Shown piece by piece: positions 29,743-51,388 of a stretch of 64,000 nt of DNA. Each line of letters opens with the position of its first letter. The first letter of the stretch is position 1. This DNA comes from an uncultured Bacilli bacterium. Its GTDB lineage: Bacteria; Bacillota_I; Bacilli_A; RFN20; CAG-288. Under the pieces are notes generated by a model. That model made no database searches. It worked only from the letters and a program-made list of their open reading frames with translations, and was not told where the DNA came from. Position numbers and translations under genes: made by a program. The DNA is taken from assembly GCA_944371605.1 (NCBI GenBank), contig CALVXU010000019.1:20832-84831 (forward strand). The letters are read 5' to 3'.

Positions 29743-29743
29743 A

Positions 29744-31810: not shown

Positions 31811-32859
31811 GAGGCTTTAGCTCCCATTCTAATACGAGGATCAACAATACCATAGCTCAAATCAACAAGGAGAGAAGCAGCTAAGCTGATCATAGTGAAG
31901 ACCGCCATATCGACTAACAAAACATTATAATCACGGGCGTTGATAGCTTCGACAAATAATCTACCAATACCTTGAATACCATATAATTGTTCCAAAACGA
32001 CCGAGCCTCCTAAGATACCGATGAATTGACCGATGATCATCGGAACTAACGGGACAAGTGAATTTCTCAAAGCGTGTCTAACAACACATTGGCTCTTAGT
32101 CAATCCTTTAGTTCTAGCTAATAATAAGAACTCACTAGACATAACTTCACAGAGTTCAGCTCTTGTATATCTAGTGAAAGCCGCGATTGTACCAAAACAT
32201 AGCGCTAGAACAGGGATCACCATCGCTCTTGCATAAGCAGATATAGGTGAACCATTTATCGGCCAAGAAGAGGGTAACCAGCCGGTATCATAAGATAACC
32301 ACAACATCAATAAAGAGATGATGACAAACGAAGGGACAGATATAAAAATCATGACAACTGTAGAAATGACATGATCTGTCGGTTTATTTTTCTTTAAAGC
32401 AGCGATGATACCAAAGATAAAACCTAAAGGAAGCGAAATGATCAACGCAAAGATATTGATAGTGATAGTGGGGACTAATCTTTGACCGATGATGTATATC
32501 GCATCAGCTTGACGTTGGATAACAGAAGAAGTTCCCCATTCCCAACGAGTAAAAATACCGGTTAGCCATGAGAAATATTGGTCGATGAGAGGACGACGAT
32601 AATAGAAGAAAGTCGCTCCAGTCGGATCAGTATACGGAGGGATAATCGTGCTCCCTAATCCCGTCTGCTCAGTGTGAAAGACCAAGTAATAGCCTTGGCT
32701 GACTTGGTCTTGACAATATGCATTTTGAGCAACATTGTTTCCACTGATAGGCGGGTCAGGAAGCATTTTCATCAAGAAGAAAGTGATCGTCAATATCACA
32801 AAAGTTGTGAATATTAATAAGACGATACGCTTAAGAGAATACTTTAATAAGTAAGGCAT
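31807..32859 (-). CDS. oppB: oligopeptide ABC permease OppB
   Basis: Six-TM BPD permease with the C-terminal DPRIRM motif typical of OppB/DppB. Confidence 0.88.
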   Translation of the reverse strand: MPYLLKYSLKRIVLLIFTTFVILTITFFLMKMLPDPPISGNNVAQNAYCQDQVSQGYYLVFHTEQTGLGSTIIPPYTDPTGATFFYYRRPLIDQYFSWLTGIFTRWEWGTSSVIQRQADAIYIIGQRLVPTITINIFALIISLPLGFIFGIIAALKKNKPTDHVISTVVMIFISVPSFVIISLLMLWLSYDTGWLPSSWPINGSPISAYARAMVIPVLALCFGTIAAFTRYTRAELCEVMSSEFLLLARTKGLTKSQCVVRHALRNSLVPLVPMIIGQFIGILGGSVVLEQLYGIQGIGRLFVEAINARDYNVLLVDMAVFTMISLAASLLVDLSYGIVDPRIRMGAKAS

Positions 32860-32873
32860 GTGATCACCTTGGA

Positions 32874-35816
32874 TTACTGATTCACACCAGTGTAAGACAA
32901 TAGACCGATAGTGGAAGAAGTTTCAGTGGTGAGAGGGCCGTCAGCACCATTGATAGTGATTTCAAAACTCACACGTAATGTGACAGATCTTGTTTTATTT
33001 AAGGTGTTATCAACAACGATACTAGCGACATAATTGCTATCCCAAAGTTCTTCTAATTGTTCATTGGTATAAGCGATAGTAGCATCACCATTAGAGAGAG
33101 ATAATGAGAGTTCTTTAGCGCCAGCATCCACTAATTGTTTGAAAGAGATACGATAAGTGACTGACTGACTCTTAGAATCGATAGATTCATATTTGATGCT
33201 GCCAGAACCGTTAGTAGAAACGTTGGAAGCTACAGCAAAAGTTCCATCATTATTCAATAATGCAGCAGAATCAGCGGCTTGCCATAAACCATCGAATGAC
33301 CACTTCTTTCCGTCATAGATGATTGGATCTTCAGAATCGATCTTGCTGGTATCTGGTCCCCAGTTTAAAGTGAATCCAGAAGAGTTATCACCTTTCATAA
33401 CCTCAAAGAAGTTGAGAGGGTTAAGATCATTACCAGAAACAGCACCGAAGCCTAAGTCGAATTCACCTCGCTTCATCAAATCATAGACTGCATTAAAATC
33501 AGAAGTTCCATCTATTGGATTGATGTGAAGTTTATAACACCCGCCATATACTTCATTGATCAATTCATCAAAAATCCTATAGATAGAATCAAACACATCA
33601 CCATAGTCTTTTTCATCAGTCGGGTTCATCCAGTTCATATCGATTGTGATCAACCAAGGATTAGTCGGAATTCCACCTTGACCACTGCCATTAGCGACTA
33701 ATTTACCATCTTCGCCCATCGGAATAATCGTTTCTTCCATAGCGGTTTCAAGAGCTCTCTTCGCCGCATCTGGGCTATAACCATAGCTCTCATTATAACG
33801 ATCAGCTAAAACAGCAGCATGAGCATCAGTGGAATTATAGGAAATACCGGTTTCAGGATCGATCAAATAGTTATCAGAGAAGTAGTTTTGTGTCGGCGTC
33901 ATACCACGAGAGGTACAAATAGTTTCACGATCAAGAGCAAAGCTTAAGAAGTCCAAGAAATTCTTGTCGCTCAAATAAGCTCTGTCTTCTCTTTGGTTCA
34001 CCCATCTACTAGTCTCACTGCTATCATGCGCATAGACAGTACCAGAAGTACCAAAGCGTCTTCTCCACTCTTCAGGTGTTAAAGAGTTGACATTGATTTT
34101 AAAGTTGGAATCACCTTTAGTTTGATAACGAGTCCATTTGACACCTTGAGCACTTGTGCCAGTCGTAGTGTTATATGGAGTGACTAAAGTATCTTTAGTC
34201 GGTGCATAAGAATCTATCGCTCCAGTTTCAAACTCGCTTTGTAATGATTTTTGAGAATATTGTTGGAATTCAAAACCTGGGATCTGATAAACATCACGAT
34301 GATTACCATCGCTCATGGTGAATCCTTCTTTATATTCATAGAAATCATCATTTCTAGTCAGCTTGATATATTGACCATTCTGCCATTGTTCAACATAGTA
34401 AGGACCAGTATATAGGAAAGTATCCACTGGACTATATCCGGTAGGGAATTGACCCAAATTTGAAGGCGTTACAGCTTCAACAAAATCAATTGGTAATGGC
34501 GAATATAAAGAGCTAGAGAGATAATACATCGCATAAAATTGAGTGCACGGATATAAAAGATTGAATTCGATATAATCTCCTTCTTCATCTTTGCCGACGA
34601 TGATGTTACCACGTGAGCCATCGGGAAGTTGGCCGTTTTCATCGCCCATCAAATTATCCCAAGCTTCTTCATCAACAACTGATCCATCATTAGGATTAGT
34701 TGAAGTAGCATTGAAATAAGAAGCAGCACCAGTGAAACCAGAAACACCATCGGTTAATTCAGAACCACGATATTGACCATTCCAAGAAGTCAACATGATT
34801 TTAAATGGTGTTAAATAATCCTCTAAAGCTACTGATCTTTTATTGAATGTTGATAAATTTGTTCCGTTCATAGTTGCGGTAGAAGCGGTTCTATAAACAG
34901 GAGCTTTATCACCTGTACGAACGTGAATTCTCCAACGGCGATTATAATCGCTTTGAATTTGATTACCTAATTCATCGACAGCGATAGGTCTTTCATCTAA
35001 AGCTAAACTCGGATACCATTCATAACCGTTATTGCTAGCGTTTAATCTAGTAGAATAATAGGCGGTTGTATAATAGCTGGCGATATCAGAGACATCAGAG
35101 CCAGAAGCATCCATAGCATTAGCATGACCAGCTACAGATACTGTACCGATTTGATAATATGATGGATCGTGATTTTCTGGGACGTTGGTTAAATCGCTAT
35201 CCAATTTACCTTCTTTCATAGTTCCCCAACCATAACCAGAAACATATTCTCTAGGAAGAGGTTTATAACGATTGTTATAAACGACATATCCGCCATTAGA
35301 AAACAAAGTGATACCTGTCAAATAATTATCGACCGCATATTTCTCCAAAGCGCCTAAAATATTAGCTTTTTCATCATAATCAACTGTTGAATAAGATTGA
35401 ACACCGCTAGCGATAGAAGATTCAGAAACCACAAAATGAACAGTGCAAGAAAAATCTTTTTCACTAGCATTAGTGATGGTGACATCTGCTTCACCAGCTT
35501 TTAATGGAGTGATCAAACCGTTAGAGATAGACAAAACAGTATCATCACTAGAGGTAAAAGTCGCTAGATGAGTGATATCTTCATTATTGTCGTTGGCATG
35601 ACAAGCTAAACGGATATTCTTTTCACCAACGTTGATATTAAAAGTATCACCGTTATTGACATCTTGACCTTTATATGTGACATAAAACGCTCTTAAACCA
35701 GAGACAACGCCTGAACCACTTCCGCCGCCAGTGATTCCAGAGTGATTAGTACAAGATGCTAATAAACCTACGCATCCGATAGCGAATAAAGAGATTAATC
35801 TAACTGATTTTTTCAT
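32874..35816 (-). CDS. oppA: oligopeptide-binding lipoprotein OppA, enlarged (980 aa) with N-terminal Big_2-like domain
   Basis: MKKSVRLISLFAIGCVGLLASC lipobox, an Ig-like segment (GEADVTITNASEKDFSCTVHFVV), then a family-5 solute-binding-protein-like body. It heads the oppABCDF cluster. Confidence 0.75.
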   Translation of the reverse strand: MKKSVRLISLFAIGCVGLLASCTNHSGITGGGSGSGVVSGLRAFYVTYKGQDVNNGDTFNINVGEKNIRLACHANDNNEDITHLATFTSSDDTVLSISNGLITPLKAGEADVTITNASEKDFSCTVHFVVSESSIASGVQSYSTVDYDEKANILGALEKYAVDNYLTGITLFSNGGYVVYNNRYKPLPREYVSGYGWGTMKEGKLDSDLTNVPENHDPSYYQIGTVSVAGHANAMDASGSDVSDIASYYTTAYYSTRLNASNNGYEWYPSLALDERPIAVDELGNQIQSDYNRRWRIHVRTGDKAPVYRTASTATMNGTNLSTFNKRSVALEDYLTPFKIMLTSWNGQYRGSELTDGVSGFTGAASYFNATSTNPNDGSVVDEEAWDNLMGDENGQLPDGSRGNIIVGKDEEGDYIEFNLLYPCTQFYAMYYLSSSLYSPLPIDFVEAVTPSNLGQFPTGYSPVDTFLYTGPYYVEQWQNGQYIKLTRNDDFYEYKEGFTMSDGNHRDVYQIPGFEFQQYSQKSLQSEFETGAIDSYAPTKDTLVTPYNTTTGTSAQGVKWTRYQTKGDSNFKINVNSLTPEEWRRRFGTSGTVYAHDSSETSRWVNQREDRAYLSDKNFLDFLSFALDRETICTSRGMTPTQNYFSDNYLIDPETGISYNSTDAHAAVLADRYNESYGYSPDAAKRALETAMEETIIPMGEDGKLVANGSGQGGIPTNPWLITIDMNWMNPTDEKDYGDVFDSIYRIFDELINEVYGGCYKLHINPIDGTSDFNAVYDLMKRGEFDLGFGAVSGNDLNPLNFFEVMKGDNSSGFTLNWGPDTSKIDSEDPIIYDGKKWSFDGLWQAADSAALLNNDGTFAVASNVSTNGSGSIKYESIDSKSQSVTYRISFKQLVDAGAKELSLSLSNGDATIAYTNEQLEELWDSNYVASIVVDNTLNKTRSVTLRVSFEITINGADGPLTTETSSTIGLLSYTGVNQ

Positions 35817-35844
35817 AATTTTTACCTCCTTTTATCAGGAATAA

Positions 35845-36228
35845 TCAAATCAAATAATATGCGAGAATGATCGATAGAATAATAAGAACAGCTCCGACTA
35901 GAAGAAACGGCAACCAAATGAATTGTGTCGTGCGTCTCTTCTCTTTTTTGATCTCTTTATAAGTATAAATATCTTTGTACTTTTTAGGAGCCCCTTTTCT
36001 AAAAGAAGAAATCCAATTAGCACATTGATAACCGAAGAGATCGAAGAACCCTTGTCTTGCGACAAACAACAATCCTAAGACTCCTAAATAAATAACACCG
36101 ATGATAACACAGCAATTACTCAAATAGAAGTCAGTACACAGATAGACAGGTGGAATAACGATTAAAGGTAGAGCTAGTGCGATTATCCAGCAAGCTATTG
36201 TCTTTTTGGTCTCAGGTAATAATAACAT
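35845..36228 (-). CDS. small membrane protein (127 aa, 3 TM), hypothetical
   Basis: Three hydrophobic helices. No motifs. Confidence 0.5.
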   Translation of the reverse strand: MLLLPETKKTIACWIIALALPLIVIPPVYLCTDFYLSNCCVIIGVIYLGVLGLLFVARQGFFDLFGYQCANWISSFRKGAPKKYKDIYTYKEIKKEKRRTTQFIWLPFLLVGAVLIILSIILAYYLI

Positions 36229-36259
36229 CTAACAAAACTTTTTTCTATATCATTATAAC

Positions 36260-36291
36260 GCAAAAGCCTCGGCCTTTCCCGGGGCTTTTGC
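36260..36291. terminator. GC-rich hairpin downstream of the protease gene
   Basis: GCAAAAGCC..TCGGCCTTTCCCGG..GGCTTTTGC nested inverted repeats. Confidence 0.5.
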
Positions 36292-36311
36292 ATTATTTTC
36301 AAAACTTATTC

Positions 36312-39300
36312 TTATTTAGCTTTCTTCTTTTTAAGAAAGAAAATAGTTAAGAACGCAGCACCGCCAACAACGATGACACCGCCGACAGCGATCAAAGCGA
36401 TATGCCATGCTTGTAAACCGCCAGAAGGAGTTGATGGATCAACAGGTGTGGTTCCAGGAGCGATGACTTGTCTGTTCAAGCTGATAGAGGCAAAGCCATC
36501 AGTGAATTGAACGTTATGGATTGTTAAATATCCGCTAGCGCTATCATAAGACATATTCTCAGCCGCTTGACCGTTGACAGAAGCTGTGATAGTAGAAGCA
36601 TCAAGACCAGTACCGACATAAAGAGTTAAAGAAGCGACGCCATCATAATCTAAATCAGCACCATCAGCATCGGTTAAGTTCACATCATAGGAATAATTTC
36701 CAGCAGAGATATTAGTCGGCGATAAGACAAAGTCAGAATCATCAGGGATGTCACTAGCGGAGACAAAGGCGTTGAGAGAATTCAAGTGAACGATGACCGA
36801 GATGGAGTTATAAGCGGTATCAGTGATAGTGATGTTCAAACGTCCATCATTTTCTTCAAGGATAGTATCAGTCAAAGTTAAAGTGGCTTGATATAAATCA
36901 TCACTTCCTTCAACTTTTACAGGGATTGCAGCACGACCAGCATAACTGATAGCGCTGTCTCCACCTTTAGTTGTAACCACTAATTGTTGTCTACCAGTAG
37001 AAGAGGTTTGAGACACAGCAGAGACGAATTCAGGAACCGTTTTATCGATGATAAGTTTATATGAACTGGTTTGAGTAGTGTTAGTTCCTCTCAATGTGAA
37101 GTTATAAGATAAGGTATATTCACCTTCATCTAAAGAACTGATATCGATGCAAGCATAACCATGGTGCATCAAATATGACGTAGTACCAGGGACAAATAAT
37201 GATTTAGCAAGACCCATACCAGTAGCTGAAGCCCAACCACTGCTATATTCATATAAGTCACCGATTTGACCTGATTTATTAACACCACTGCCGGAGATGC
37301 TCCAGGTGGCTTCAGAGACAGATCTATTCACATAGAAGACACTGACCAAATGATCAGAAACACCATTAGCACCAGCCTTCAAATACAAGTCTCCATTTTC
37401 ATCATAACGAGCGATATCTAAATATTTAGTACCATTAGGATAAGCAGATGTTGATAAATCACCGATTCTGCCGATTTCAGAACTTGTAGGAGTAGAACCA
37501 GTAGCGGCGAGAGTAGATCCAGTATAAGCGTTTCTCTTAGCAGCTGTTCCGCTTAAATTTTTGATATAAGCATCAGCTAATTCAGAGTTATAAAGATGTC
37601 CTTTTTCTTTTTCAAATTGGAATGGTTCAACCGCTTTACCAACCGTGTAATCACCATAGAAGCCGAGATAAGGCATTGTCAAAGTATGAGAAACACCATT
37701 TTCATTATCTTCAGAAGTGGTGCTATCCTTTTCAGTTAAGTATAAATAACCTTCGACATAGCTGCCGCCAGCTGATTTGAAATATTGATTGAAGTATTCT
37801 CTTAAAGTTCCGTGGAAATCAGGAACATCTTTTTCACCATCGCCATCAACATCAGCATCAAAAACCTTATCTAATTCGATATTATCGATACGAACTCTAA
37901 CTTTGCCAGTAGCAGTAGAATTAGCAGCGACTTCAACATCACCTTTTCCTTCAGCCCAATTAGCATCGGGAATAGTTAAAGCTTGATCATTGATAGAAGT
38001 AGTGATCGAGCCGGGTAAATTTTCAGCGACATCAGCGACAGTAGTCGGATCATTTTCTTTACTATTTTCGTATTCGGAAGTGGTTAATTGGATTCTCAAA
38101 TCTGGAATCATCAAACTGAGAGAAGGAGTATAAGTTCTAGTTTTAGAGCTATCATTATGGATGGTATAACTGAATTCGATATATGCTTCTTCATCAGTAG
38201 CTAAATCAGTATTCAATGTACCTCTGTTCTTCAATTCAACTTTTGAAACTTCCGTGCTTTCAGTCTTCAAAGCATCAGAGCTAGATACAGCCTCGGAATC
38301 AGATACAGAAGGAGAAGTGACATAAGCGTTATTTCCTAACATATCAGCGACATTGATGATGCCAGAGCCTTGAAGTCTGATCGAGCCGATATTATTAGCA
38401 GTACTATCTACTAATTGATTAGCAGTAGACATAGCTATGTTAGAAATCTTTTTCTTATAAGCAGCGAATGCTTCATCATCCTCTAGTGCTAAACTGCCGC
38501 CATTTTCAGGTTTCTTTTCACTTAAAACAGAAGCTAAAGCGCCAGAAAAATTAGGAGAAGCCATCGAAGTTCCTGACATATTATCGTAGCCAGCTAACTT
38601 AGAAGTGGCACCGACGACAGAAGCATCGATAGCGCCGATGACTTGTCCGCCTGGAGCGGAGATAGTCGGAGAGATATCTAAGTTATAAGAAGGTCCATCA
38701 GAGGAGAAGGAAGAAGTGATGTTACCATCAGGAGCGACAACAGCTTGATTAGTGGATAAAGTCAATTCACCAACAGTATTATCTTCGCCAAAGGTTGGAC
38801 CCATATTTTGGAAGACCAAAATAACAGGGATTTCTGGGTTATAAGAACCATAATCGAAATTGAAATTGAAAGTGACAGAGGCATCATTATTGATGACGAT
38901 CAACGCATCAGCACCAGCTGCTTGAGCAGCAAGAGTTTTTTCTGTAAAGGTTGTTTCACCACGGTCGATAACAGCGATGACTTTTGAATCTTTACCTAAT
39001 TGTTCTTTCAATCCAGCAAAACTCGAGATCGCAGTTTCGTATTCTTGATTATATGAATCATAGAAGGATTGATAATCGCTATCAGCACCGACACCACCGA
39101 TACGGACATAATTAAATGTTCCTTCTTGTTGATCACCTAACAATTGAGTGAAAGGATGTTCGATGTTGAATTCGATTGTAGATCCTTCACGGTTGATGAC
39201 TTGATCGTAGTATGAAACAGCTGTGCCATTGACGAGTAAAATTGATTCATAGAACGCTTTGTCAGGGTTAGAAGAAGCGACGATATTGACATTTTCATCA

Positions 39301-40475
39301 TTTAAAGTTTCACCGCCCAAATAAGAAGACTCAACAGTATCTGTGGTCCAATCAGAATATCCTTGATTACCGGAGAAACTCGATTTACCAGAGTTTCCAG
39401 CAGCATAGTTGACGATCACACCAGCCTCAATAGCCCCTTGAATCGCTTGATATGTGAGAGATGAAGCATCATCATCGTAATCGGTCAAATCAGTTCCTAA
39501 AGAAAGGTTTATGACATCGAGTCCGAGCTTAGCAGCATCATTGATAGCAGCGATGATATCAGAATCACCAGCTCCTCCATCTCCATCAGGGAAAACTTTC
39601 AAAATCGCTAATTGAGCATTAGGAGCGATACCAGTGAAGTCATCACCATTAGCAGCTGCTAGCGAAGCGACGTGAGTTCCGTGATCAGCAGTAGATGGAT
39701 TAACATTATTATCATTTCCTTGATAATCGTATGCGAAAGCGATCTTTTTGTTGATTCTAACACCTTCTTGTCCAACAAATTCAGGATCTCTCTTAGCAGC
39801 GTTTACAACGCTTTCAGAAAGAACATCTTCGACATTTGTGGTGTCTTTGAAAGCAGCTGCGTTATATTCGTCAGCAGTAGCTTCTAACTCACTTCTTTGA
39901 CTGGTTCCCTCGACCTGATTTAAGAACAAACCAGTATCGATAATACCGATAGTGATTCCCTTACCCAATTGAGCTTCACCTTCAGTACCAGTGACATCTT
40001 TGATCGCTTTAGAGATATCTGTAGATGTTGCAGACATCGTCTCTGCAGAATAGTTGGCTAATTTATCTCTCTTGATATCTTCAGCTGAAGAAGCGAAAGT
40101 ACTGGCACCGCTAGAAAGGGTCGAAGCTGTAGGACGAGCATAGGTGTGTGAAACCTCAACACTAGCAACACCAGGGATTTCAGCAACATAATCTTTCAAA
40201 GAAGAATCCATGGTGATAGAGAAGCCATTTAAAACTTCATCATAAACATGATCGATATGATAGAGTTCTTCTGGTAAGCGATAAGCGAGTTCATTTAACA
40301 CTTTATTTCTAGCAACATCTGCTTTGCTAGATTTCACGCCCTGATCAATAGTGACGATAAAAGTTTCCTCTCCCGCTTTTTCTACTCCAGGCATATTGAC
40401 TGGAGAAGCAGAGGCTAAAAGGCCACCAAAGCCAAGGCAAGTTAATAATGAAACTAAAGAAAATAGTTTTTTCAT
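36312..40475 (-). CDS. membrane-anchored subtilisin-like serine protease (S8 family, cell-envelope proteinase-like), 1388 aa
   Basis: Start taken at MKKLFSLVSLL (ATG at 40475, GGAGG ribosome-binding site 10 nt upstream). Catalytic triad contexts IGIIDTG, HGTHVAS and GTSMASP. There is a large insert between His and Ser, as in lactocepin/C5a peptidase. The C-terminus is a hydrophobic helix plus KKKKAK, not LPXTG. Confidence 0.9.
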   Translation of the reverse strand: MKKLFSLVSLLTCLGFGGLLASASPVNMPGVEKAGEETFIVTIDQGVKSSKADVARNKVLNELAYRLPEELYHIDHVYDEVLNGFSITMDSSLKDYVAEIPGVASVEVSHTYARPTASTLSSGASTFASSAEDIKRDKLANYSAETMSATSTDISKAIKDVTGTEGEAQLGKGITIGIIDTGLFLNQVEGTSQRSELEATADEYNAAAFKDTTNVEDVLSESVVNAAKRDPEFVGQEGVRINKKIAFAYDYQGNDNNVNPSTADHGTHVASLAAANGDDFTGIAPNAQLAILKVFPDGDGGAGDSDIIAAINDAAKLGLDVINLSLGTDLTDYDDDASSLTYQAIQGAIEAGVIVNYAAGNSGKSSFSGNQGYSDWTTDTVESSYLGGETLNDENVNIVASSNPDKAFYESILLVNGTAVSYYDQVINREGSTIEFNIEHPFTQLLGDQQEGTFNYVRIGGVGADSDYQSFYDSYNQEYETAISSFAGLKEQLGKDSKVIAVIDRGETTFTEKTLAAQAAGADALIVINNDASVTFNFNFDYGSYNPEIPVILVFQNMGPTFGEDNTVGELTLSTNQAVVAPDGNITSSFSSDGPSYNLDISPTISAPGGQVIGAIDASVVGATSKLAGYDNMSGTSMASPNFSGALASVLSEKKPENGGSLALEDDEAFAAYKKKISNIAMSTANQLVDSTANNIGSIRLQGSGIINVADMLGNNAYVTSPSVSDSEAVSSSDALKTESTEVSKVELKNRGTLNTDLATDEEAYIEFSYTIHNDSSKTRTYTPSLSLMIPDLRIQLTTSEYENSKENDPTTVADVAENLPGSITTSINDQALTIPDANWAEGKGDVEVAANSTATGKVRVRIDNIELDKVFDADVDGDGEKDVPDFHGTLREYFNQYFKSAGGSYVEGYLYLTEKDSTTSEDNENGVSHTLTMPYLGFYGDYTVGKAVEPFQFEKEKGHLYNSELADAYIKNLSGTAAKRNAYTGSTLAATGSTPTSSEIGRIGDLSTSAYPNGTKYLDIARYDENGDLYLKAGANGVSDHLVSVFYVNRSVSEATWSISGSGVNKSGQIGDLYEYSSGWASATGMGLAKSLFVPGTTSYLMHHGYACIDISSLDEGEYTLSYNFTLRGTNTTQTSSYKLIIDKTVPEFVSAVSQTSSTGRQQLVVTTKGGDSAISYAGRAAIPVKVEGSDDLYQATLTLTDTILEENDGRLNITITDTAYNSISVIVHLNSLNAFVSASDIPDDSDFVLSPTNISAGNYSYDVNLTDADGADLDYDGVASLTLYVGTGLDASTITASVNGQAAENMSYDSASGYLTIHNVQFTDGFASISLNRQVIAPGTTPVDPSTPSGGLQAWHIALIAVGGVIVVGGAAFLTIFFLKKKKAK

Positions 40476-40780
40476 CAAAATAACCTCCGAAAAATATGCA
40501 AAATCAATTTTATTGAGATTGTTTATCAATGCAAGTGAAAAATCGATTAGCTTTTTTCAGGTCACATAGCTATTTCTTTGCTGTTTTTATAAATTTTGTA
40601 GTTTTCAACGCTATAAATTGTCAATAAATAATTATTCAAACCTTCGTTTGTTTTGTTTGTAAGTGCTTACATTTGAGGGTAATTTATTTTTATAATTATG
40701 TTTATATTTATAAATAATAATATCGATTGTGTTTTTTATCGATTTTCAGTTTTAAAGAAGAAGTTTATGAAAGTGCTTTC

Positions 40781-41971
40781 TCAAGCTGACATGAGTTCTT
40801 TAACCACCTTGACCATCTCTTCCATTTCAAAGAGGTCAACATATTCATATTTTCCGTGGCAATTATAATCGCCAGTTCCTAAATTAGGACATGGTAAACC
40901 TTTAAAGGAAAGTTGTGAACCTGTTGTACCGCCTCTGATGGCTTCGTATTCATATTCGATGTTGAGCTTTTTATAAACACTTTCCATCTCTTCTTGAATT
41001 TGTGGATATTTATCTAGCACTTGTTTCATGTTGTGATATTGAGGTTTGATATCAAGAAGGATAGCATCATAACCGAGCTTTTCATTCATTCTCTTCGCGG
41101 TGAATTGGGCTAATTTGATCAAATACCCAACCTCTTCTTCAGAAAAACTTCTGATGATAAAATTTGCCTCCGCTTCATCTTCACTGCCTTTGATATCACA
41201 AAGATGATAGAAAGGCTCTTTTCCCGCAGTATCTTCAGGTCTTAAGAAAGTTGGTAACGCTTCTGTGAATTTAAAAAGCGTTGTTGCAGCATTGACCAGT
41301 TTATTTTTAGCCGAACCAGGATGAATAGATTTGCCTCGAACTTTGACTTTCATACCATATGCAGTGAATGATTCAACAGAGATGAGACGGTAGTCTCCAC
41401 CATCGATAGTGTATCCATACTTCGAATCGACGATTTCCATTGAAACGTGTTCAGCATCCGCGCCTATCTCTTCATCAGTAGTGAAAATAATTTCTAATGG
41501 ACGATGATTTTTGGTTTTTAAAACCTCTTTTAAAGCAGTCATGATGATGGCGATTCCAGCTTTGTCATCACCGCCTAAAAGGGTAGTGCCATCTGTCGTG
41601 ATGATCTTATGACCGATTGAATGATTTAGTGAAGGAAAATCTGTAGCAGACAAAATCAAAGAATCACCTAGCTTTACATCTTTTCCATCATAATCGATCA
41701 GCTGTGGTTTTACATCCTTTCCAGACGCTTGATTGGAAGTATCCATATGCGCTAAAAAAGCGACTTTTTCCTTAGAATTATCTCCGTAAAACTTAGCATC
41801 GATAACACCGAATCTATTGATTGAAATCTCATTTGGCTCAAGTTCGAATAGTTCCTTTAATAAAGCATCAGCTAAAACAAGCATCTTTTCATTAGAACAA
41901 GAAGTGGGCTTTTCTTCTAAAGCGGTTGTTTCATAACTGACATATTTTAAAAATCTCTCTAAAACCGTCAT
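40781..41971 (-). CDS. pepT: peptidase T (tripeptide aminopeptidase, M20B)
   Basis: FLAHMDT, GGDDKAGIAIIM and TTDEEIG metal-ligand motifs match PepT. Confidence 0.88.
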   Translation of the reverse strand: MTVLERFLKYVSYETTALEEKPTSCSNEKMLVLADALLKELFELEPNEISINRFGVIDAKFYGDNSKEKVAFLAHMDTSNQASGKDVKPQLIDYDGKDVKLGDSLILSATDFPSLNHSIGHKIITTDGTTLLGGDDKAGIAIIMTALKEVLKTKNHRPLEIIFTTDEEIGADAEHVSMEIVDSKYGYTIDGGDYRLISVESFTAYGMKVKVRGKSIHPGSAKNKLVNAATTLFKFTEALPTFLRPEDTAGKEPFYHLCDIKGSEDEAEANFIIRSFSEEEVGYLIKLAQFTAKRMNEKLGYDAILLDIKPQYHNMKQVLDKYPQIQEEMESVYKKLNIEYEYEAIRGGTTGSQLSFKGLPCPNLGTGDYNCHGKYEYVDLFEMEEMVKVVKELMSA

Positions 41972-42008: not shown

Positions 42009-45000
42009 TTAATTTGAATTCTCAGCTCTTCTTCGCAGATTATAAATAAGATTGAGCTCATCATAGCTATAATGGTTGTGATACACTTCAGCAAACTCAC
42101 CTTTAGCTAGAGTTGAATTTCGTAAACTATTCTGATATTCGCCGATTTTCTCTTTTATCTGCTTACCGACATGTATCGTTCTTTTGATTGTAGAATTTAT
42201 AATTTTATGCATCAAATCATATTTGATGACCACTAATCCTTGATCATCTATTCTGTTGATCAACTCTTTAAACGTGATATGTCTCAGTGTGTATGGCACT
42301 TCAATTTCATCTAAAATAATGATGGCGTTCAACATGTTTAAGTCATAGAAATTTCGACGATATGAATTGACTAAAATAGCATATTCAGTCGCCTCTTTAT
42401 AAGCTTCGTCATTTTCACCATCAAAAATGATTGAAATATAATCCATACTATCATCGATGTTGACATTCATATCTATAAATGATTTAGGACAACATTTCTT
42501 CGCTGTCTTATCGATGATATCGACAAATTTATAAACATTATTTTTATCAACAATCGATAAAGAAGCGCCGATCAAACGAATGAAAATATAAATCAGATGT
42601 CCTTTTTGTTTGATTTGATTCTCACTGACTTGTAAAGCCTGTGAAAAGTTATAAGGATCAGTGACAAAATCTCGACTAGTGATACAATTTTTACCATCTA
42701 TCTCAGTCATCACAAAACTATGACCATTAGTTATAAAACTTGTGTCTCTCTTAAAATCGGCCAGAGATTTGATATTTGCGATTAAAACATTTTCGGAGTT
42801 CTCTTCTTTCTTTTCATCATATAAAACATACTTCCAACCGAATTTAGATGTTTCATCGCCATAAGCATCAAATTTTATCTCGCGTCCCGAGAAATCGACG
42901 ACATCATCTTTAGATCCGAACAGATCAACATATAATTCTTTGGCTTTAATTGATTTTTGTTTTCTGAGCGATATTGATGTTAAATCCTCTTCTAAAACCA
43001 CGCTATCAGCTTCGACTTCATAAAATTGTTGATCGTCTTTTTTAGCCTCTGGATGCTCTTGTAAATACTCTTGTAAATCTTTTTGGCAAAATGATAATCC
43101 ATTTTCATCTAACCATGATTTGACTTCCGAATATCTATCTAGAGATATCTGTTCTTCAGCTAATGATAGATATTCTTTATTCTTATTTAATTCATCATAG
43201 AGATTTTGTTTGTAATTTTGTAAAGCTATATTATCCTGTTGAAGCTTTTCTATTCTCTTTGATAATTCTTCTTTTTCAGTAATTGAAGCGGAATATTTGC
43301 TTTGCACATCATTAAAACTATTATTTAAATCGATATATTTCGATTTTAAATCATCGTTGCTTTTTTGAACTTCAGCAAGAGCTATATCGAGCTTTTCTTT
43401 ATCATCAGCAGAAAGCTGTTTAGTCCTAATCAAATCTTCATTCTCTTGTTTCAATCGGTCATTTTCAACGTTTAACGATGTGATCTTTAGCTGTAATTCA
43501 TTGATCACATTTTCTTTTTCATTGTTAACCTTAGACAAATCTTCAATTTGATTTTGATATTCTAAAAGATTAGCATCGCTTTCTTTTTTTTGTTCAACTA
43601 TTTGATCTAAATTTTTCTCGTCAGTAATTTTTTTGAGCTTTAATTCTTCAATCGTTTTGTTGAGCTCCGCTTCTTCTTTTAATAGTTGATTAATTTTGTT
43701 CTCTTTACTCAAAACATCTCGATTCACTAAATCAATCGCCGAATTCAAATCAGCAATCTTAGCTTTTAGAGGTGCAGTCTCTTGGAATCTATTCTTTAAA
43801 TCATTCAGCTCATCTGCAATTTTTTGATATTTTTCATTTTCTGAGCTGTTGATTTCTAACTGCTCATTTAATTTATCATCGGCTTCTAGTTTTTCGTTTT
43901 TAATTTTATTTAATTCTTCATCTTTTTGAGCATTGATATTTTCTAACTCAATAATTTTCCTTTTGAGTTCTTCTAATGTGCTAGCATTTTGTGCTTTTTC
44001 TTCCGCCAATATTTCTAATCTTTTCTCAACATCAGCTTTTTCTAAATAAATGTTTTGAATTTGATTTTCTAGCTCTGCTTTTTGAGCGTTTATATCTAAA
44101 AATCTCTTCTGAGAATCTGTCTCTTTTTGAAGAATTTCATTCTTATATTCGTTCAATTCAACGTTATCTTTTTTAAGTTGCTCCAAACTATTTAATAGTT
44201 CTTGAACTCGTGAATTTAAACTAGCTTCAACTTCTTTATATTTTTGTAATTGTGCAGTGAGTTCATCGATTTGATATTGCTTGTTTTTAGAACCATTTTC
44301 TAATTCTGCTTTTTGAGATTCTAGTTCACATATTTTTTTAGATGTTTCATTTCTTTCATCTTCAATTTGCTTAAGCTTATCATTTGATAAAGTTATTTCT
44401 TTTTTTAGAGAATTGATTTCTATACCTTTTTGTTCAGCGATGATCTTATATGATTCAAGAGTCTTTTTATCATCTTCAAAAGCGGCTATTTTACCTTTTA
44501 AATTTCCGTTTTCATTTTCAATAAGTGATTGAGTTTCTTGAAGTTGATTGAGTTTATTCACTGTCGAATAAAGGGTGGTATTTATCCTTTCAATCTCTTT
44601 TTCTTTCTCAGAGATATCATTCTTTAATCGCTCATTCTCTTCTTTTAATCTTTCATTTTCTTCATCATTTATAACGATTTCAGAGATTTCTTCTTCACGA
44701 GTCATCTCTTGTGGTAAATCACCGCTTTGCTCTTTTTCTTCAACTTTATTATCTAAAGCTAATAAGCGATCATTCAATTCTGCGATATCGTGCTCTTTAT
44801 CTGAAAGTTCTATCTTTAAATCTGTGATCTGTTTTTTTAAGTTCTCTATCTCTGAAGTTTGGGGGTTAGCGATATTTTCGTTAACATTCTCCGAATTTAA
44901 ATTTTTATCTTCATAAACCTCACCATTCGCCTCGATAGTCGCCTCTGCTGAGATCTCTTTTAATTTTTCGATTTGCTCATCGGGGATAGGAGTCTTTTCT

Positions 45001-45482
45001 TGAATAGGTGGATTGATACCAAAATCGACTGAATGATTACGGAATGCATATAAATCTTTAGCATAGTCGATGTTTTTTTCTTCTTTTCTCGCCAATGATT
45101 TTTGTAATCTTTCTTGATTATATGTCGAATCTTGATTTTGATTATTCGGTTCCATATCAACTGGACGACTTCGATCTGTTACATCAAAAATATGGAAACT
45201 CCCATATTGAGTTCCTTTACGAACCTCATATAAGAAATTTCCAATTTTAAAAACTGTTCTTTCATTTCTGAGAGCTTTAGTCAAAATACTAGTCGGGATG
45301 AAGTTATACATCGAAGTGTTGCCGTTTTTTGAAAGTGGCTGTTTATAATCAACATCCCATCCGCCATCAGATTCTGAATTTCTAAAATCATTTTTATACA
45401 TCGGATGCGATGCATAATCATAGGCGATGTCTCTATCACCATAGAGCATTTCCCATAGTCTAAGGGCCTGTTCCTTCTCCAT
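42009..45482 (-). CDS. 1157-aa protein: a ~650-aa coiled coil flanked by two mutually homologous N- and C-terminal HNH-like domains that lack the catalytic His
   Basis: The N-terminal domain reads LYGDRDIAYDYASHPMYKNDF..SDGGWDVDYKQPLSKNGN. The C-terminal domain reads LFGSKDDVVDFSGREIKFDAYGDETSKFGWKYVLYDEKKEENSEN. Both follow the HNH (beta-beta-alpha-Me) layout (YG...GW.(I/V)D(H).P..KGG..N), with Tyr in place of the first His. The centre is heptad-rich E/K/L/N sequence with recurring AQKAELEN units. No signal peptide. The gene starts 20 nt after the dnaN stop. Confidence 0.75.
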   Translation of the reverse strand: MEKEQALRLWEMLYGDRDIAYDYASHPMYKNDFRNSESDGGWDVDYKQPLSKNGNTSMYNFIPTSILTKALRNERTVFKIGNFLYEVRKGTQYGSFHIFDVTDRSRPVDMEPNNQNQDSTYNQERLQKSLARKEEKNIDYAKDLYAFRNHSVDFGINPPIQEKTPIPDEQIEKLKEISAEATIEANGEVYEDKNLNSENVNENIANPQTSEIENLKKQITDLKIELSDKEHDIAELNDRLLALDNKVEEKEQSGDLPQEMTREEEISEIVINDEENERLKEENERLKNDISEKEKEIERINTTLYSTVNKLNQLQETQSLIENENGNLKGKIAAFEDDKKTLESYKIIAEQKGIEINSLKKEITLSNDKLKQIEDERNETSKKICELESQKAELENGSKNKQYQIDELTAQLQKYKEVEASLNSRVQELLNSLEQLKKDNVELNEYKNEILQKETDSQKRFLDINAQKAELENQIQNIYLEKADVEKRLEILAEEKAQNASTLEELKRKIIELENINAQKDEELNKIKNEKLEADDKLNEQLEINSSENEKYQKIADELNDLKNRFQETAPLKAKIADLNSAIDLVNRDVLSKENKINQLLKEEAELNKTIEELKLKKITDEKNLDQIVEQKKESDANLLEYQNQIEDLSKVNNEKENVINELQLKITSLNVENDRLKQENEDLIRTKQLSADDKEKLDIALAEVQKSNDDLKSKYIDLNNSFNDVQSKYSASITEKEELSKRIEKLQQDNIALQNYKQNLYDELNKNKEYLSLAEEQISLDRYSEVKSWLDENGLSFCQKDLQEYLQEHPEAKKDDQQFYEVEADSVVLEEDLTSISLRKQKSIKAKELYVDLFGSKDDVVDFSGREIKFDAYGDETSKFGWKYVLYDEKKEENSENVLIANIKSLADFKRDTSFITNGHSFVMTEIDGKNCITSRDFVTDPYNFSQALQVSENQIKQKGHLIYIFIRLIGASLSIVDKNNVYKFVDIIDKTAKKCCPKSFIDMNVNIDDSMDYISIIFDGENDEAYKEATEYAILVNSYRRNFYDLNMLNAIIILDEIEVPYTLRHITFKELINRIDDQGLVVIKYDLMHKIINSTIKRTIHVGKQIKEKIGEYQNSLRNSTLAKGEFAEVYHNHYSYDELNLIYNLRRRAENSN

Positions 45483-45502: not shown

Positions 45503-46660
45503 TCATGCGTTAAATGATGAAATTCTGATAGGTGTGATGATTTGAATATTTTCAGGATCATCATTCTTAACCATGAACATTTGGACAGCTGAGGCGAAAA
45601 CAAAGGTGATATTTTCGCTCTTGAGAGCTTTGACAGCTTCGATTGCGAAGTCAACATTAAATCCTATTTCAAATACATATTCAGAATCAGGCAGTGTGAA
45701 TGTGGCTTTTTTAATGACTTCTTGGGAATTACCATAATTTGTCGAACGAGCTGAAAGAATAACTCCATTTTCGTTAGAAATAGTCAAACGAACTTGAGAA
45801 TTTCGATCCTCAGCTGAAGAGATGATTCTGACTCTTTCTGCGGCAGCTAAAAACTCATTCGTATCAAACGTGATTGAATATGGAAATTTAGTCGGAATCA
45901 ATCTGTCTGGTGAAGGAAAATCACCAGGTAATAATCTTGTGGTGATGATGGCGTTAGAAGTTTTAAAAACCGCGCGTTTATCATCAAAATAAATAGTACA
46001 ATCGTCATCTTCGTTTAAAACAGTCACCATATTAATCGCTTTGACTTTACAAGTGAAATTAAATTCAGCAGTCGAACCTTCCTCTGGTAAAGATAGACGC
46101 GCCATTCTATAAGAGTCGGTTGTCAAAAAATAAAGGCGTCCATTTCTAGCGCTGATGTTAATGCCATAATAAAGATCACGAGGACCTTTGGTAGCCACAG
46201 CAAAAGCAGTGGCATCAAACAAAGTTTTGATATCTTTAACTTTGGTTTTAAATCCTTCACTATTTTCTGGTTCGCTCAAGTTTATTTCAGGATACTCTTC
46301 AGCCGCTTTAGTGACGAGATTAAAATCTGAATTATCATCTGAAATATTCAAGAAATTAGTGTCAACCATATTTAACGTGATGATATCACCACCTAATTTA
46401 CTGACGATATCATAAAGATATTTAGCAGGTGCTTGAATGACGCCAGTTTCTACAGCGATGATGACCTCTTCATCACCATCATTTTTTAACTGAGTGACTT
46501 TTGTAGATATATCGCCATCAGAAGCGATGACTGAAACTTTATCATCACTGACTTCAATCAAAAAGTTCATGAACTGCGTCTCTGCAGATTTTGCAGGGAT
46601 AGCGCTCATCGCTAATGTTAATAATTTAAGAAAGTTTTGTCTTTTTATAGTTAATTTCAT
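45503..46660 (-). CDS. dnaN: DNA polymerase III beta sliding clamp
   Basis: MKLTIKRQNFLKLL...SAETQFMNFLIEV, the three-domain size (385 aa) and the position near dnaA support the call. Confidence 0.9.
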   Translation of the reverse strand: MKLTIKRQNFLKLLTLAMSAIPAKSAETQFMNFLIEVSDDKVSVIASDGDISTKVTQLKNDGDEEVIIAVETGVIQAPAKYLYDIVSKLGGDIITLNMVDTNFLNISDDNSDFNLVTKAAEEYPEINLSEPENSEGFKTKVKDIKTLFDATAFAVATKGPRDLYYGINISARNGRLYFLTTDSYRMARLSLPEEGSTAEFNFTCKVKAINMVTVLNEDDDCTIYFDDKRAVFKTSNAIITTRLLPGDFPSPDRLIPTKFPYSITFDTNEFLAAAERVRIISSAEDRNSQVRLTISNENGVILSARSTNYGNSQEVIKKATFTLPDSEYVFEIGFNVDFAIEAVKALKSENITFVFASAVQMFMVKNDDPENIQIITPIRISSFNA

Positions 46661-46772: not shown

Positions 46773-47336
46773 TTATTTTAATGTGTAAGTAAAGACTATA
46801 GATAATTCAGCACCGATTGAATTGCTATCATCTATATCCATATCCATCTCAGCATTCATATTGGTCAACAAACCATCAGCATTGATTTGAACAGTCATAG
46901 TCATCTCATTGATTGTAGATCCAGTAGTAGGTAATTCCATATCACCAGTTTGTCCTTGTTCTAAATCTTCTGCGGTCAATTTAGCACCGATTGATAATGC
47001 ATTTCCATCAGCATAAAAATGAACATCATCAGTAGCATCAGTGAAATCGAGTTGAACAACAGTCGCAGTGACATCTGTTGCTTTTTCATCAAGCAGTTTG
47101 TCTCCTACATCAAAAGCGGCATCAGCAGCCTTACCTTCTACTTTGGTGATGACCATCTCAATTGTTCCAGTGCCTGTAGGTTCATATTTTGCATCAACAT
47201 TTGCTTGAGAATAACTTTCAACTATTTTTTGTGCTTCTTCTTTGCTGATCTCTTTACCTGGCAAACCGAATTCGTTACTACAACTGACTAAAAAAACTAA
47301 AGGTAAAGCGATAGCTGTTAATAGATGTTTTTTCAT
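46773..47336 (-). CDS. hypothetical lipoprotein (187 aa) between dnaA and dnaN
   Basis: MKKHLLTAIALPLVFLVSC lipobox. Acidic Thr/Asp-rich mature protein. Confidence 0.7.
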   Translation of the reverse strand: MKKHLLTAIALPLVFLVSCSNEFGLPGKEISKEEAQKIVESYSQANVDAKYEPTGTGTIEMVITKVEGKAADAAFDVGDKLLDEKATDVTATVVQLDFTDATDDVHFYADGNALSIGAKLTAEDLEQGQTGDMELPTTGSTINEMTMTVQINADGLLTNMNAEMDMDIDDSNSIGAELSIVFTYTLK

Positions 47337-47455: not shown

Positions 47456-47636
47456 TGTGGAAATGTGGATAATTCAGGCATTATCATTTGTTGAGTAAAA
47501 ACAATGTATGAGAAAACATCAATGAATATGCTGCTTTTTTAATAATTACACCTATTGTTTTATACGAATTGTTTGTTAAAATTTATCAACATTGTCAGTT
47601 AGTAAATCAATAGATATCAACCATAGTTGTGGATAA
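47456..47636. promoter_or_regulatory. oriC segment downstream of dnaA: DnaA boxes plus an AT-rich candidate unwinding element
   Basis: TGTGGATAA (reverse complement of TTATCCACA) is perfect at about 47464-47472 and 47628-47636. TGTGGAAA at 47456-47463 and TTATCAACA at 47583-47591 are near-matches. A run of (ATAATAA)n lies at about 47411-47450. Confidence 0.75.
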
Positions 47637-47719: not shown

Positions 47720-49087
47720 TTAATCTGTCTTTTTAATTTTAGAAGTCAAAGTATCTATGGCGTTTTTTAAATTTGAATCATCTTGTAGACCATCAACGAT
47801 CGTTTGAACATTTGACATAACAGTGGTGTGATCCTTACCGAACTCTCTTCCAATCACTTGATATGGTAAAGATAAAAGCGAACGGCATAAGTACATGGCT
47901 ATTTTTCTCGCGTAGGCGATTTGAGAAGTCCTGACTTTACTCTTCAATTGTGATTCTGTCAATGAATAGTGTTCAGCGACAGTTTTGATGATTTTTCCCA
48001 TATCGATTTTACCGCTATTGGCTCTTTTTCTTTCATCATCTTCAAAAACATTCTTAGCAAATTTCAGCGTGACTTTGCCATCGGGCTTATGAACAGTCAC
48101 AGCAAATAATAATTTAGTAAAGGCACCTTCTAGCTCACGGACATTGCGACTATAATTGAGTGCTAAATATTCTAAGACATCATTATCAAAGAAATCTAAA
48201 GGTAAAGAATTAACTTTGATTTTGAGCTTTAATATCTCAATCAAAGTGCTTTTATCAGGACAAGATATTTGAATTGATAAACCACCCGAAAATCTAGAAA
48301 CTAATCTATCTTGTAATCCTTTTAATTCGCTAGGAGACCTATCAGAAGTCAAGATGATCTGCTTATGTTGGCTGACCAAGAGATTGAACACGTTAAAAAA
48401 CATGATTTGAGTATCTTCTTTACCAGCTAAAAACTGAATATCATCCACCATCAAGATATCGACAGTATTAAAAAAATCTTTTAAATTTTCGCTGTCTTTA
48501 TTCCCTTTGATAAAACGAACAAATTCAGATATGAAATCATCTGTCGTGATGTATAAAACCTTGCTATTAGGATATTTTATTTTGTATTCGTTTCCGATCG
48601 CATTGAGCAAATGGGTTTTACCTAAGCCAGATTTAGAATATAAAAATATCGGGTTGTTAGCACCTGGGTTAGAAATCGCAAACAAAGAGGCTACATAAGC
48701 ATCTCGATTAGATGGGCCAGTGACAAAATTATCAAAAGAATATTGGGACTGGAGATAAGAGTTTTTAAAGAATTTTGTTTCGACCTGTTCGACCGCTTGT
48801 CTCTTTCGCGAGTAGCTGACTTTATCGACTATTTCAATCTCATAATGAGTTTCAGCGATAGCATCTAGCTCTTTGCTGAGCAATGTTAAATAAGTTGTTT
48901 TGATGATGGTAGCAACGGCTGATGACTCAGCGACAAACACCGCTTTGTTATTATCTAAGCTTTTTAATTCAAAGATATCTTCATCGAAAAGATTTTCAAA
49001 AAGGCGAGGAGCAATCGCCATAGAGAGACGTTCGAGTAATTTTTTATAGATATTTGCTATCTGTCGATCTTTAGAAGTTTCAGGCAT
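47720..49087 (-). CDS. dnaA: chromosomal replication initiator DnaA
   Basis: AAA+ Walker A GLGKTHLLNAIGNEY, VDDIQFLAGKE, and a C-terminal DnaA-box-binding domain (IAMYLCRSLLSLPYQVIGREFG..DHTTV). 455 aa. Confidence 0.95.
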   Translation of the reverse strand: MPETSKDRQIANIYKKLLERLSMAIAPRLFENLFDEDIFELKSLDNNKAVFVAESSAVATIIKTTYLTLLSKELDAIAETHYEIEIVDKVSYSRKRQAVEQVETKFFKNSYLQSQYSFDNFVTGPSNRDAYVASLFAISNPGANNPIFLYSKSGLGKTHLLNAIGNEYKIKYPNSKVLYITTDDFISEFVRFIKGNKDSENLKDFFNTVDILMVDDIQFLAGKEDTQIMFFNVFNLLVSQHKQIILTSDRSPSELKGLQDRLVSRFSGGLSIQISCPDKSTLIEILKLKIKVNSLPLDFFDNDVLEYLALNYSRNVRELEGAFTKLLFAVTVHKPDGKVTLKFAKNVFEDDERKRANSGKIDMGKIIKTVAEHYSLTESQLKSKVRTSQIAYARKIAMYLCRSLLSLPYQVIGREFGKDHTTVMSNVQTIVDGLQDDSNLKNAIDTLTSKIKKTD

Positions 49088-49166: not shown

Positions 49167-49454
49167 TTATCCACCAAAACAATTCGGTCGTTTTCTTCTT
49201 ATATTCAGTGATAAAAAAAGAGTTATCCACCGTGATGTGATTGTGGATAACTTGTGGATAAAGTGTCGGAGGATAAATGAATTGTGGATAAGTGGATAAC
49301 AATCCACAAAACAGATAGTTATCAACAATAAGAAAAGTAAGTATTTATCGTAAAAAACAAAGAAACTAACCGAAATAAATATTCGTTATCCACTATATGT
49401 GTATTGTGTCTAAAATTGTGGATAAGATGTGGATAACTAGCATTATTATCCACA
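49167..49454. promoter_or_regulatory. oriC segment upstream of dnaA: dense DnaA-box cluster
   Basis: At least nine TTATCCACA-type 9-mers in both orientations. Perfect or one-mismatch copies lie near 49167, 49224, 49242, 49253, 49283, 49291, 49386, 49417, 49428 and 49446. The first gene to the right starts at 49698. Confidence 0.9.
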
Positions 49455-50884: not shown

Positions 50885-51388
50885 TTATAGTTCGGTATTA
50901 GAGTGTGGTTTGGAGATTAAGCTATATAAGAAATTGGTTAATGTTTCACAATTGATGTTATCGGATGATAAGAATTTTATCATTTGATTTGTTAACATTT
51001 CGGCATAAGCTTGCATCATTTCTTTTTTGGTTTCGTTAGAGGGATAATATTTTCCTAAATTTTCTGCAAGAAAATTGATGTTTTTCTTTTTAGGGGAGTT
51101 ATGATCAACAGAATTGAAAGAATTGACTAAAGATTTTCGGTATTTAAAACATAAAGAGACATAACTGTCTAAAAAAGCTTTTAAACTCTTTTCCTCAGGT
51201 ATTTTAGAAAAGATAAAACTTTCTAAAGCTGAATTGAACAGATCATATTTATCGATGAAATACTTATAAAAAGTTTTTTTACAAATACCAGATGTCGATA
51301 GTATCTGCGTGACAAAAACATGATCGATATTATTCGCTTCGGTCAAATTAAAAATGGTCTGTTGTAAATATTCTTTAACTTTCATCAA
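50885..51388 (-). CDS. TetR/AcrR-like transcriptional regulator (167 aa)
   Basis: N-terminal ..ANNIDHVFVTQILSTSGICKKTFYKYFIDKYDLF resembles the TetR HTH (..T...IA...G.S.GT.Y.YF..K..L). The start overlaps the stop of the GH5 gene (operonic). Confidence 0.55.
   Translation of the reverse strand: MMKVKEYLQQTIFNLTEANNIDHVFVTQILSTSGICKKTFYKYFIDKYDLFNSALESFIFSKIPEEKSLKAFLDSYVSLCFKYRKSLVNSFNSVDHNSPKKKNINFLAENLGKYYPSNETKKEMMQAYAEMLTNQMIKFLSSDNINCETLTNFLYSLISKPHSNTEL

Follow-up and report, generated by a model that had tools for sequence, protein, structure and literature searches.

A coiled-coil rod protein of three pseudoenzyme modules encoded beside dnaN in an uncultured Bacilli bacterium

The analysis of a 64,000-nucleotide stretch of DNA from an uncultured Bacilli bacterium (GenBank assembly GCA_944371605.1, contig CALVXU010000019.1, positions 20,832 to 84,831; hereafter the window, in whose coordinates features are given) reveals a conserved cytoplasmic protein composed of three pseudoenzyme modules, encoded directly after the sliding clamp gene dnaN. 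The open reading frame (ORF), here called the rod gene (42009..45482, minus strand, ATG start), specifies a product of 1157 amino acids (aa) with five successive parts, running from a catalytically dead HNH domain through a flexible acidic linker and a ~580-aa coiled coil to another dead HNH domain and, finally, a domain of the cyclase fold. While the folds are already known, the architecture and the family are new, having no curated family, solved structure or paper, and we rate the family as a new combination in which a coiled-coil scaffold bears pseudo-nuclease and pseudo-cyclase modules. Support for the anatomy is good, whereas the function discussed below is one that we infer.

The novelty of the family was assessed by several searches. 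Pfam, NCBIfam and PADLOC, queried with the whole protein and with each domain, returned coiled-coil noise or nothing; PDB sequences, searched with profiles for the N-domain and the last 318 aa, returned nothing meaningful; no description of such a protein was found in the full-text literature, and no source gives a name to the cluster of any family member. These results agree with an earlier note on this DNA, made from the letters alone, which had recognised no described family. They also agree with it that the product lacks a signal peptide. Specifically, no signal peptide or transmembrane segment is present in the 1157-aa protein, the N-terminus is hydrophilic, no sorting motif occurs, and the highest KD19 value (1.46) falls in a beta strand of the C-terminal domain. 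Given these absences and the cytoplasmic-type enzyme folds of the terminal domains, it is extremely improbable that the rod protein is a secreted or surface fibril comparable to M-protein adhesins, even with its long acidic coiled coil and a surface S8 protease among its neighbours; Gram-positive surface coiled-coil proteins differ from it in carrying a signal peptide and a wall or membrane anchor.

Degenerate HNH domains and a cyclase-like domain

The two HNH-like domains are the N-domain (aa 1-128; 45099..45482, minus strand) and a second domain (aa 843-940; 42663..42956, minus strand; isoelectric point, pI, 5.0), the latter delimited by hhalign, phmmer, AlphaFold2 (AF2) and alignment. The homology of two ~90-aa segments, as originally proposed, was recovered by profiles, whereas pairwise BLASTP of the two domains was not significant (13.5 bits, E=3.6). 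By comparing the family profiles of both domains with hhalign, a probability of 99.0% was obtained over 86 columns (E=3e-18), and the correspondence was strengthened by the AF2 models of both regions (pLDDT 96.1 and 91.9), whose helices and strands agree in order and spacing. The beta-beta-alpha-metal fold that defines the HNH superfamily was found in both. A profile search of the terminal domains against HNH models, which the earlier note had put forward as a check, gave no direct Pfam or NCBIfam match for either domain even at E<10.

The assignment to HNH nucleases is thus drawn from two independent lines, transitive by sequence and, judged from the predicted models, structural as well. The intermediates are short relatives of the rod protein, several of which (P0051, P0064, P0071 and P0065) pass the Pfam HNH_4 threshold over the region matched by the second domain. 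Matches of the second domain in phmmer include the HNH_4-positive proteins P0051, P0054, P0064 and P0071, and HNH_4-passing short relatives are matched at 1e-14 to 1e-24 by the hidden Markov models (HMMs) of either HNH-like domain.

Comparison with these relatives locates the loss of catalytic residues. The core of intact relatives reads G-W-N-I-D-H-I-x-P-K-S-x-G-G ... N-L-I ... T-N-D-E-K, while the N-domain reads G-W-D-V-D-Y-K-Q-P-L-S-K-N-G ... N-F-I ... T-K-A-L-R and the second domain G-W-K-(gap)-Y-V-L-Y-D-E ... N-V-L ... S-L-A-D-F. In the N-domain the general-base His is replaced by Tyr46 (D45-Y46) and the Asn of the metal-ligand helix by Lys69, with D45 and N60 kept; in the second domain the D-H segment is deleted together with the P-x-S-x-G-G loop, and Leu occupies the helix position. 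Across 43 family members the general-base position is filled by Y, M, F, E, L, V, K and other residues. Realignment revealed no intact H-N-H set, a D-H pair at this site occurring in 0/43 members, with P0014 alone reading S-H. The conservation of the N-domain in the family is otherwise high at D45 (93% D/E) and N60 (100%). Such findings bear out the proposal of an HNH template whose His is Tyr or absent, extend it to the whole family, and support the view that both domains are nuclease-derived and, as far as their residues indicate, catalytically degenerate family-wide.

One of the closest known systems is the HNH domain of Cas9 type (Pfam HNH_4, PF13395). In SpCas9 the general-base His is H840 and the helix Asn is N863. 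The rod protein differs in that its domains have no direct Pfam match and possess neither of these two residues, in its lack of a guide RNA or RuvC context, and in the missing P-x-S-x-G-G loop of its second domain.

The third module was overlooked in the original description of a rod capped at both ends by HNH-like domains, since the second of these is followed by a conserved domain of 217 aa (C-domain, aa 941-1157; 42012..42662, minus strand), defined here by AF2, Foldseek and family conservation. The proposal of two inactive nuclease-derived heads on a rod holds for the degenerate HNH domains and the long coiled coil, but it omitted this cyclase-like module. AF2 models the C-domain confidently as beta-alpha-beta-beta-alpha-beta (palm-type) with a small helical subdomain, and in Foldseek cyclase catalytic domains take the first rank, though with weak scores (E about 3e-3, target-normalised TM about 0.5). 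The fold of the cyclase catalytic domain (CHD) was thus found, and the C-domain resembles in fold the class III cyclases (adenylyl, guanylyl and PycC-type) and pseudo-cyclases (PDB 6yii). It differs from them in sequence, as PF00211 was matched by 0/30 family members at E<1 and by the target C-domain alone neither, and in arrangement, as an HNH-like domain lies between its coiled coil and the cyclase-like domain.

The C-domain also lacks the two metal-binding Asp residues that class III cyclases carry in beta1 and in the beta2-beta3 turn. Strand beta1 (aa 960-971, GHLIYIFIRLIG) contains no acidic residue, and an invariant K/R stands at aa 969, where cyclases carry a metal Asp, a correspondence drawn from secondary-structure order and not from residue-level superposition. 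The beta2-beta3 hairpin is variable in length and sequence, and the only strongly conserved acids, D1021 and E1030, lie away from strand 1 and the hairpin. We therefore read the C-domain, on the basis of its model, as a putative pseudo-cyclase domain. Its family motifs are YIF-[VI]-[KR]-x-x-G, F-D-G, L-L-N-S-Y-R and I-K-R-T-I-H-x-G-P, and the greater part of the protein's conserved basic and polar residues falls within it (R969, D-[KR]-T-x-[KR]-[KR], N-S-Y-R, R-H and K-R-T-I-H-x-G-P). The basic residues would most likely form the ligand site, whether for nucleic acid or for a nucleotide.

These residues also bear on the possibility that the protein is still an enzyme, either a nuclease or a nucleotidyl transferase with non-canonical residues (D45 and N60 of the N-domain; R/K, H and D/E of the C-domain). 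The retention of D45 and N60, the invariant N-S-Y-R and the conserved R-H and H-x-G-P are in line with such activity, but the general-base position varies freely and so shows no catalytic constraint, the entire stretch with D-H and P-x-S-x-G-G is gone from the second domain, and strand 1 of the C-domain is non-acidic with K/R at the metal-Asp position. We consider this explanation very unlikely.

The coiled-coil rod and its linkers

Heptad analysis places the rod at aa 208-790 (43113..44861, minus strand), preceded by an acidic Pro-containing linker (aa 129-207; 44862..45098, minus strand; pI 4.5; 51% identity to the orthologue at locus L003) and followed by a short acidic linker recognised by heptad and charge analysis (aa 791-842; 42957..43112, minus strand). 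The coiled coil of ~650 aa described originally was thus confirmed as a long heptad region, but its length is about 583 aa, with an acidic linker of ~80 aa ahead of it. Uninterrupted heptad registers span aa 345-558 and 565-774, and the rod contains just two prolines, 257 and 571. Full extension of its 583 residues, at 0.148 nm each, would give a length of about 85 nm. The same plan is displayed by homologues, in which a Pro-rich acidic linker of 100-400 aa separates the N-domain from a Pro-free coiled coil of 250-650 aa; in homologue P0017, the heptads are unbroken from 489 to 854.

A moderately conserved peptide was observed at aa ~138-160 (window ~45003-45071), within the otherwise variable acidic linker that follows the N-domain. 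It reads roughly F-x-L-P-x3-I-x2-N-x-hydrophobic in many homologues and D-Y-A-K-D-L-Y-A-F-R-N in the target, and it is also present in P0001, a stand-alone N-domain protein. We take it to bear a loose likeness to MutL-type Q-x-h-L-x-P clamp motifs, and it is a candidate partner-binding element.

The simplest reading of the rod is an extended, in-register parallel dimer. Heptads run continuously across the rod midpoint in the target and in homologues, and because no conserved break occurs there, a hairpin of the SMC/Rad50 type is unlikely. An antiparallel homodimer, which would rebuild three-module heads at both ends, is not favoured because the register breaks (~261, 344, 388, 456 and 562) are asymmetric about the centre at ~496. 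SMC, Rad50 and MukB are similar to the target in size and long coiled coil, and their chromosome-related roles may be likened to the role putatively assigned to it below. Nevertheless, weak profile matches to such proteins are confined to the coiled-coil region, the SMC, Rad50 and GAS models giving coiled-coil-type noise only and the SMC and Rad50 models remaining far below their cut-offs, and the target has no ABC ATPase head, hinge, zinc hook or mid-rod apex. The candidate hairpin with an apex was accordingly rejected, given that the heptads cross the midpoint and that neither a Walker A nor a CxxC motif is present in the 1157-aa protein.

Family, short relatives and the origin of the giant form

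Homologues were collected by an exhaustive phmmer search with aa 840-1157 against a 50%-identity representative library, which was needed because a word-index search had missed the family (no homologue for the C-terminal part, and P0001 only for the N-terminal part). The search yielded 72 representatives, about 45 of them full length with the same layout (830-1330 aa), and all members of the rod family are known from metagenomes only. The short relatives (P0049-P0073) match the second domain only in this search. They are proteins of 200-900 aa that contain the same three globular modules as the target in the same order, with module 1, a degenerate module 2 and the C-domain side by side, modules 1 and 2 being separated by 5-15 aa. 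Unlike the target, they have no coiled coil, their module 1 is often an intact HNH domain, and they are located in ordinary, variable, non-origin contexts.

By scoring both HMMs against the short relatives, the modules could be matched to those of the giant form. In most members module 1 fits the N-domain HMM better (lower E-value), in nearly all of them module 2 fits the second-domain HMM better, and the C-domain profile aligns with their C-terminal regions in hhalign at 96.4% probability (E=1.4e-9, 195 columns). As the same three modules are adjacent in the short relatives, the giant form appears to have arisen by insertion of a linker and a coiled coil between HNH modules 1 and 2, with loss of catalysis, and a plausible evolutionary route is shown in which a coiled coil is placed between two adjacent domains. 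Whatever the function, the result is a family without annotation that comprises about 45 clusters (50% identity), together with a short tandem-HNH sister family reaching the Mollicutes, and three new domain definitions for annotators that current Pfam and NCBIfam models miss.

One such Mollicutes relative is RefSeq WP_129720803.1 of Mycoplasmopsis cynos, annotated as "HNH endonuclease domain-containing protein". In the M. cynos record NZ_LR214986.1, a 285-aa protein with an intact HNH and a C-terminal L-x-N-T-Y motif is encoded at 6001-6858 of locus L019; a transposase gene lies near this ORF, and the 986-kb record is filed as "plasmid 13". A phage or plasmid origin of the family was considered and rejected. 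Phage collections held no homologues of the rod family or its relatives, and the plasmid database matched only through the short relative P0051 in two Mollicutes records (844 and 987 kb, listed as non-mobilizable plasmids), that is, Mollicutes chromosomes held in the plasmid set.

The short relatives are also what lends some appeal to a role as a conflict or defence sensor, in which a nucleotide signal would be bound or produced by the cyclase-like domain while the HNH modules attacked invading DNA, after the manner of CBASS Cap5, Pycsar or Septu-type systems. Several of them carry an intact HNH in variable, non-origin contexts and are weakly matched by the PADLOC Cas9 and PtuB models, and the lower-ranked structural neighbours of the target include Cap5, PtuB, retron HNH proteins and PycC-type cUMP/cCMP cyclases. 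For the rod protein itself this role is improbable, as the general-base His and helix Asn are missing from both HNH domains and the strand-1 metal Asp from the cyclase-like domain, PADLOC gave only coiled-coil noise on the target, mobile-element homologues are confined to those described above, and the gene is single-copy and fixed beside dnaN in 13/13 divergent genomes.

A different fate is illustrated by P0001 (706-1209 of locus L001 and 170-673 of locus L002), a stand-alone protein of 167 aa comprising the N-domain and the conserved peptide that follows it. Its gene stands directly after a GH2-like glycosidase gene, with a histidine kinase gene converging from the other side. At locus L010, the same kind of GH2 gene lies directly upstream of a full-length homologue of 1288 aa, and P0001 thus has the look of a remnant left by truncation, an indication that the rod and the C-terminal modules can be lost.

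The dnaN neighbourhood and the proposed function

The position of the rod gene was examined both within the window and across related genomes. As the earlier note had stated, a gene for 1157 aa begins 20 nt past dnaN (45503..46660, minus strand; Pfam PF00712, PF02767 and PF02768), which encodes the DNA polymerase III beta clamp and lies immediately upstream. No terminator-like site occurs in this 20-nt gap, and dnaN and the rod gene are probably co-transcribed. On the other side, an M20 peptidase gene (PepT-like; 40781..41971, minus strand; PF01546 and PF07687) lies 37 nt past the rod-gene stop. The dnaA gene (47720..49087, minus strand; PF00308 and PF08299) is flanked by two DnaA-box clusters: oriC part 1 upstream (49167..49454; 6 perfect TTATCCACA boxes and 6 with one mismatch) and part 2 downstream (47464..47636; 2 perfect boxes and 1 with one mismatch). 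In the whole window, 43 boxes with at most one mismatch were observed against 19 expected, and the cumulative GC skew reaches its minimum at about 46-48 kb. The flanking clusters and the skew minimum place the rod gene proximal to the origin, as had been claimed.

The conservation of this position was investigated at 13 loci, namely nine species-level loci of metagenome-assembled genomes from a genome scan and four further, more divergent members. The order dnaN, rod gene, M20 peptidase was found in 13/13, over dnaN identities from 95% down to 44%, which confirms the synteny expected from the window. The gap between dnaN and the rod gene is 4-175 nt in 12/13 loci, while in L010 a transporter gene and the GH2 gene are inserted between them. 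Since some loci (L011 and L017) have dnaA inverted or at varying distance, the linkage of dnaN and the rod gene is at least as stable as that of dnaA and dnaN. At L016, the locus of one divergent member, two further genes come after the M20 peptidase gene (6093-8086): one for an Endonuclease_1 protein (PF04231) and a 106-aa ORF that faintly matches the Rad50 zinc hook.

Selective constraint was evaluated against the closest orthologue, L003, whose dnaN is 95% identical and whose rod protein is 72% identical overall. Identity ranges from 79-91% in the globular parts to 65% in the rod and 51% in the linker, and dN/dS is 0.06-0.18 in every part (N-domain 0.09, rod 0.18, second domain 0.06). The best explanation is that the rod gene is real, vertically inherited and specific to one lineage.

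Because the gene sits in an operon-like dnaN - rod gene - pepT arrangement beside oriC throughout a deep clade, and because its modules have nucleic-acid or nucleotide ancestry, the role that we tentatively prefer, with rather less than even confidence, is that of a non-enzymatic rod scaffold of pseudoenzyme modules with a structural task on the chromosome or replisome, either tethering or spacing. A parallel dimer would pair two cyclase-like domains at one end, in the way that cyclase catalytic domains normally pair, and would hold two N-domains on flexible leashes about 85 nm from that end, so that the rod could bridge DNA or a DNA-bound partner at its two ends. A more specific and doubtful version is a previously unrecognised chromosome or replisome organiser, an ATP-independent rod of ~85 nm consisting solely of pseudoenzyme modules (two dead HNH domains of Cas9 type and a dead class III cyclase domain). 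Produced together with the sliding clamp, it would link DNA of the origin region, or DNA loaded with the clamp, physically to another site, and a nucleotide in the pseudo-cyclase pocket might gate it. If the function is chromosomal, the dnaN operon of a whole uncultured gut and rumen Bacilli clade would encode a structural component that is neither SMC nor ParB, and the protein would clearly exemplify the conversion of nuclease and cyclase folds to use as a scaffold.

Two known proteins offer a parallel to this putative role. RacA of Bacillus subtilis is a coiled-coil protein that anchors the origin region. The analogy to RacA as a coiled-coil origin tether, and to WhiA (LAGLIDADG) as a nuclease fold dead in catalysis, is in concept only, neither having any sequence or fold relationship to the target. 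A passage in PMC3781837 relates WhiA to homing endonucleases.

Several observations weigh against a role on DNA. With a net charge of -70 and a pI of 4.8, the protein as a whole is strongly acidic; of its HNH-like domains, the second is acidic family-wide (median pI 5.0) and the N-domain about neutral. The DNA-binding heads envisaged by the earlier note are not supported by these values. Chromosome tethering, also suggested there, draws on gene position, and position is weakened as evidence of function by the synteny of the whole origin region in the clade, which extends to a VCA0040-like gene lying upstream of dnaA both in the window and in L015; the place beside dnaN may be historical and not functional. 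Downstream, pepT, the S8 protease and the Opp transporter constitute a peptide-uptake cluster unrelated to replication. A canonical beta-clamp motif (QL[SD]LF-type) was not found in the target, the conserved peptide that follows the N-domain in many members being of a different type, and the parallel orientation and dimeric state are read from heptad continuity only. Finally, as one lineage has only the truncated 167-aa N-domain protein, the full protein may be dispensable.

Some of these features would suit a scaffold of the cytoskeleton or cell architecture unrelated to DNA, forming filaments or spanning the envelope, with the dead domains as protein-protein adaptors. The ~580-aa coiled coil dominates the protein, the acidic or neutral globular domains are unlike typical DNA binders, and the gene position may merely reflect conserved origin synteny. 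Set against this, constraint is far stronger on the globular ends than on the rod, all three globular modules have folds that come from enzymes acting on nucleic acids or nucleotides, the protein has neither a signal peptide nor a membrane anchor, and the junction with dnaN is tight, often near-overlapping, and at least as faithfully kept as the adjacency of dnaA and dnaN. We regard such a scaffold as possible but unlikely.

Other genes near the origin

Between dnaA and dnaN, a lipoprotein-like ORF of 187 aa (46773-47336, minus strand) with a signal peptide and a lipobox (...LVSC) adjoins the second DnaA-box cluster just downstream of it. This ORF has no Pfam match, is 95% conserved in the closest relative L003 only and was undetected in the other loci. 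A 712-aa ORF (57301-59439, plus strand) and a 167-aa ORF (50885-51388, minus strand) near the origin had no Pfam match at E<1e-5, and an Rfam scan of the window revealed no RNA family.

The peptide-acquisition cluster lies 3' of the rod gene (28006-41971, minus strand) and comprises the PepT-like M20 peptidase, an S8-type protease-like ORF and an Opp-like ABC transporter. The protease-like ORF encodes 1405 aa with an N-terminal signal and a C-terminal transmembrane anchor, and the transporter includes an unusually large SBP_bac_5 protein (980 aa) and a permease of 688 aa.

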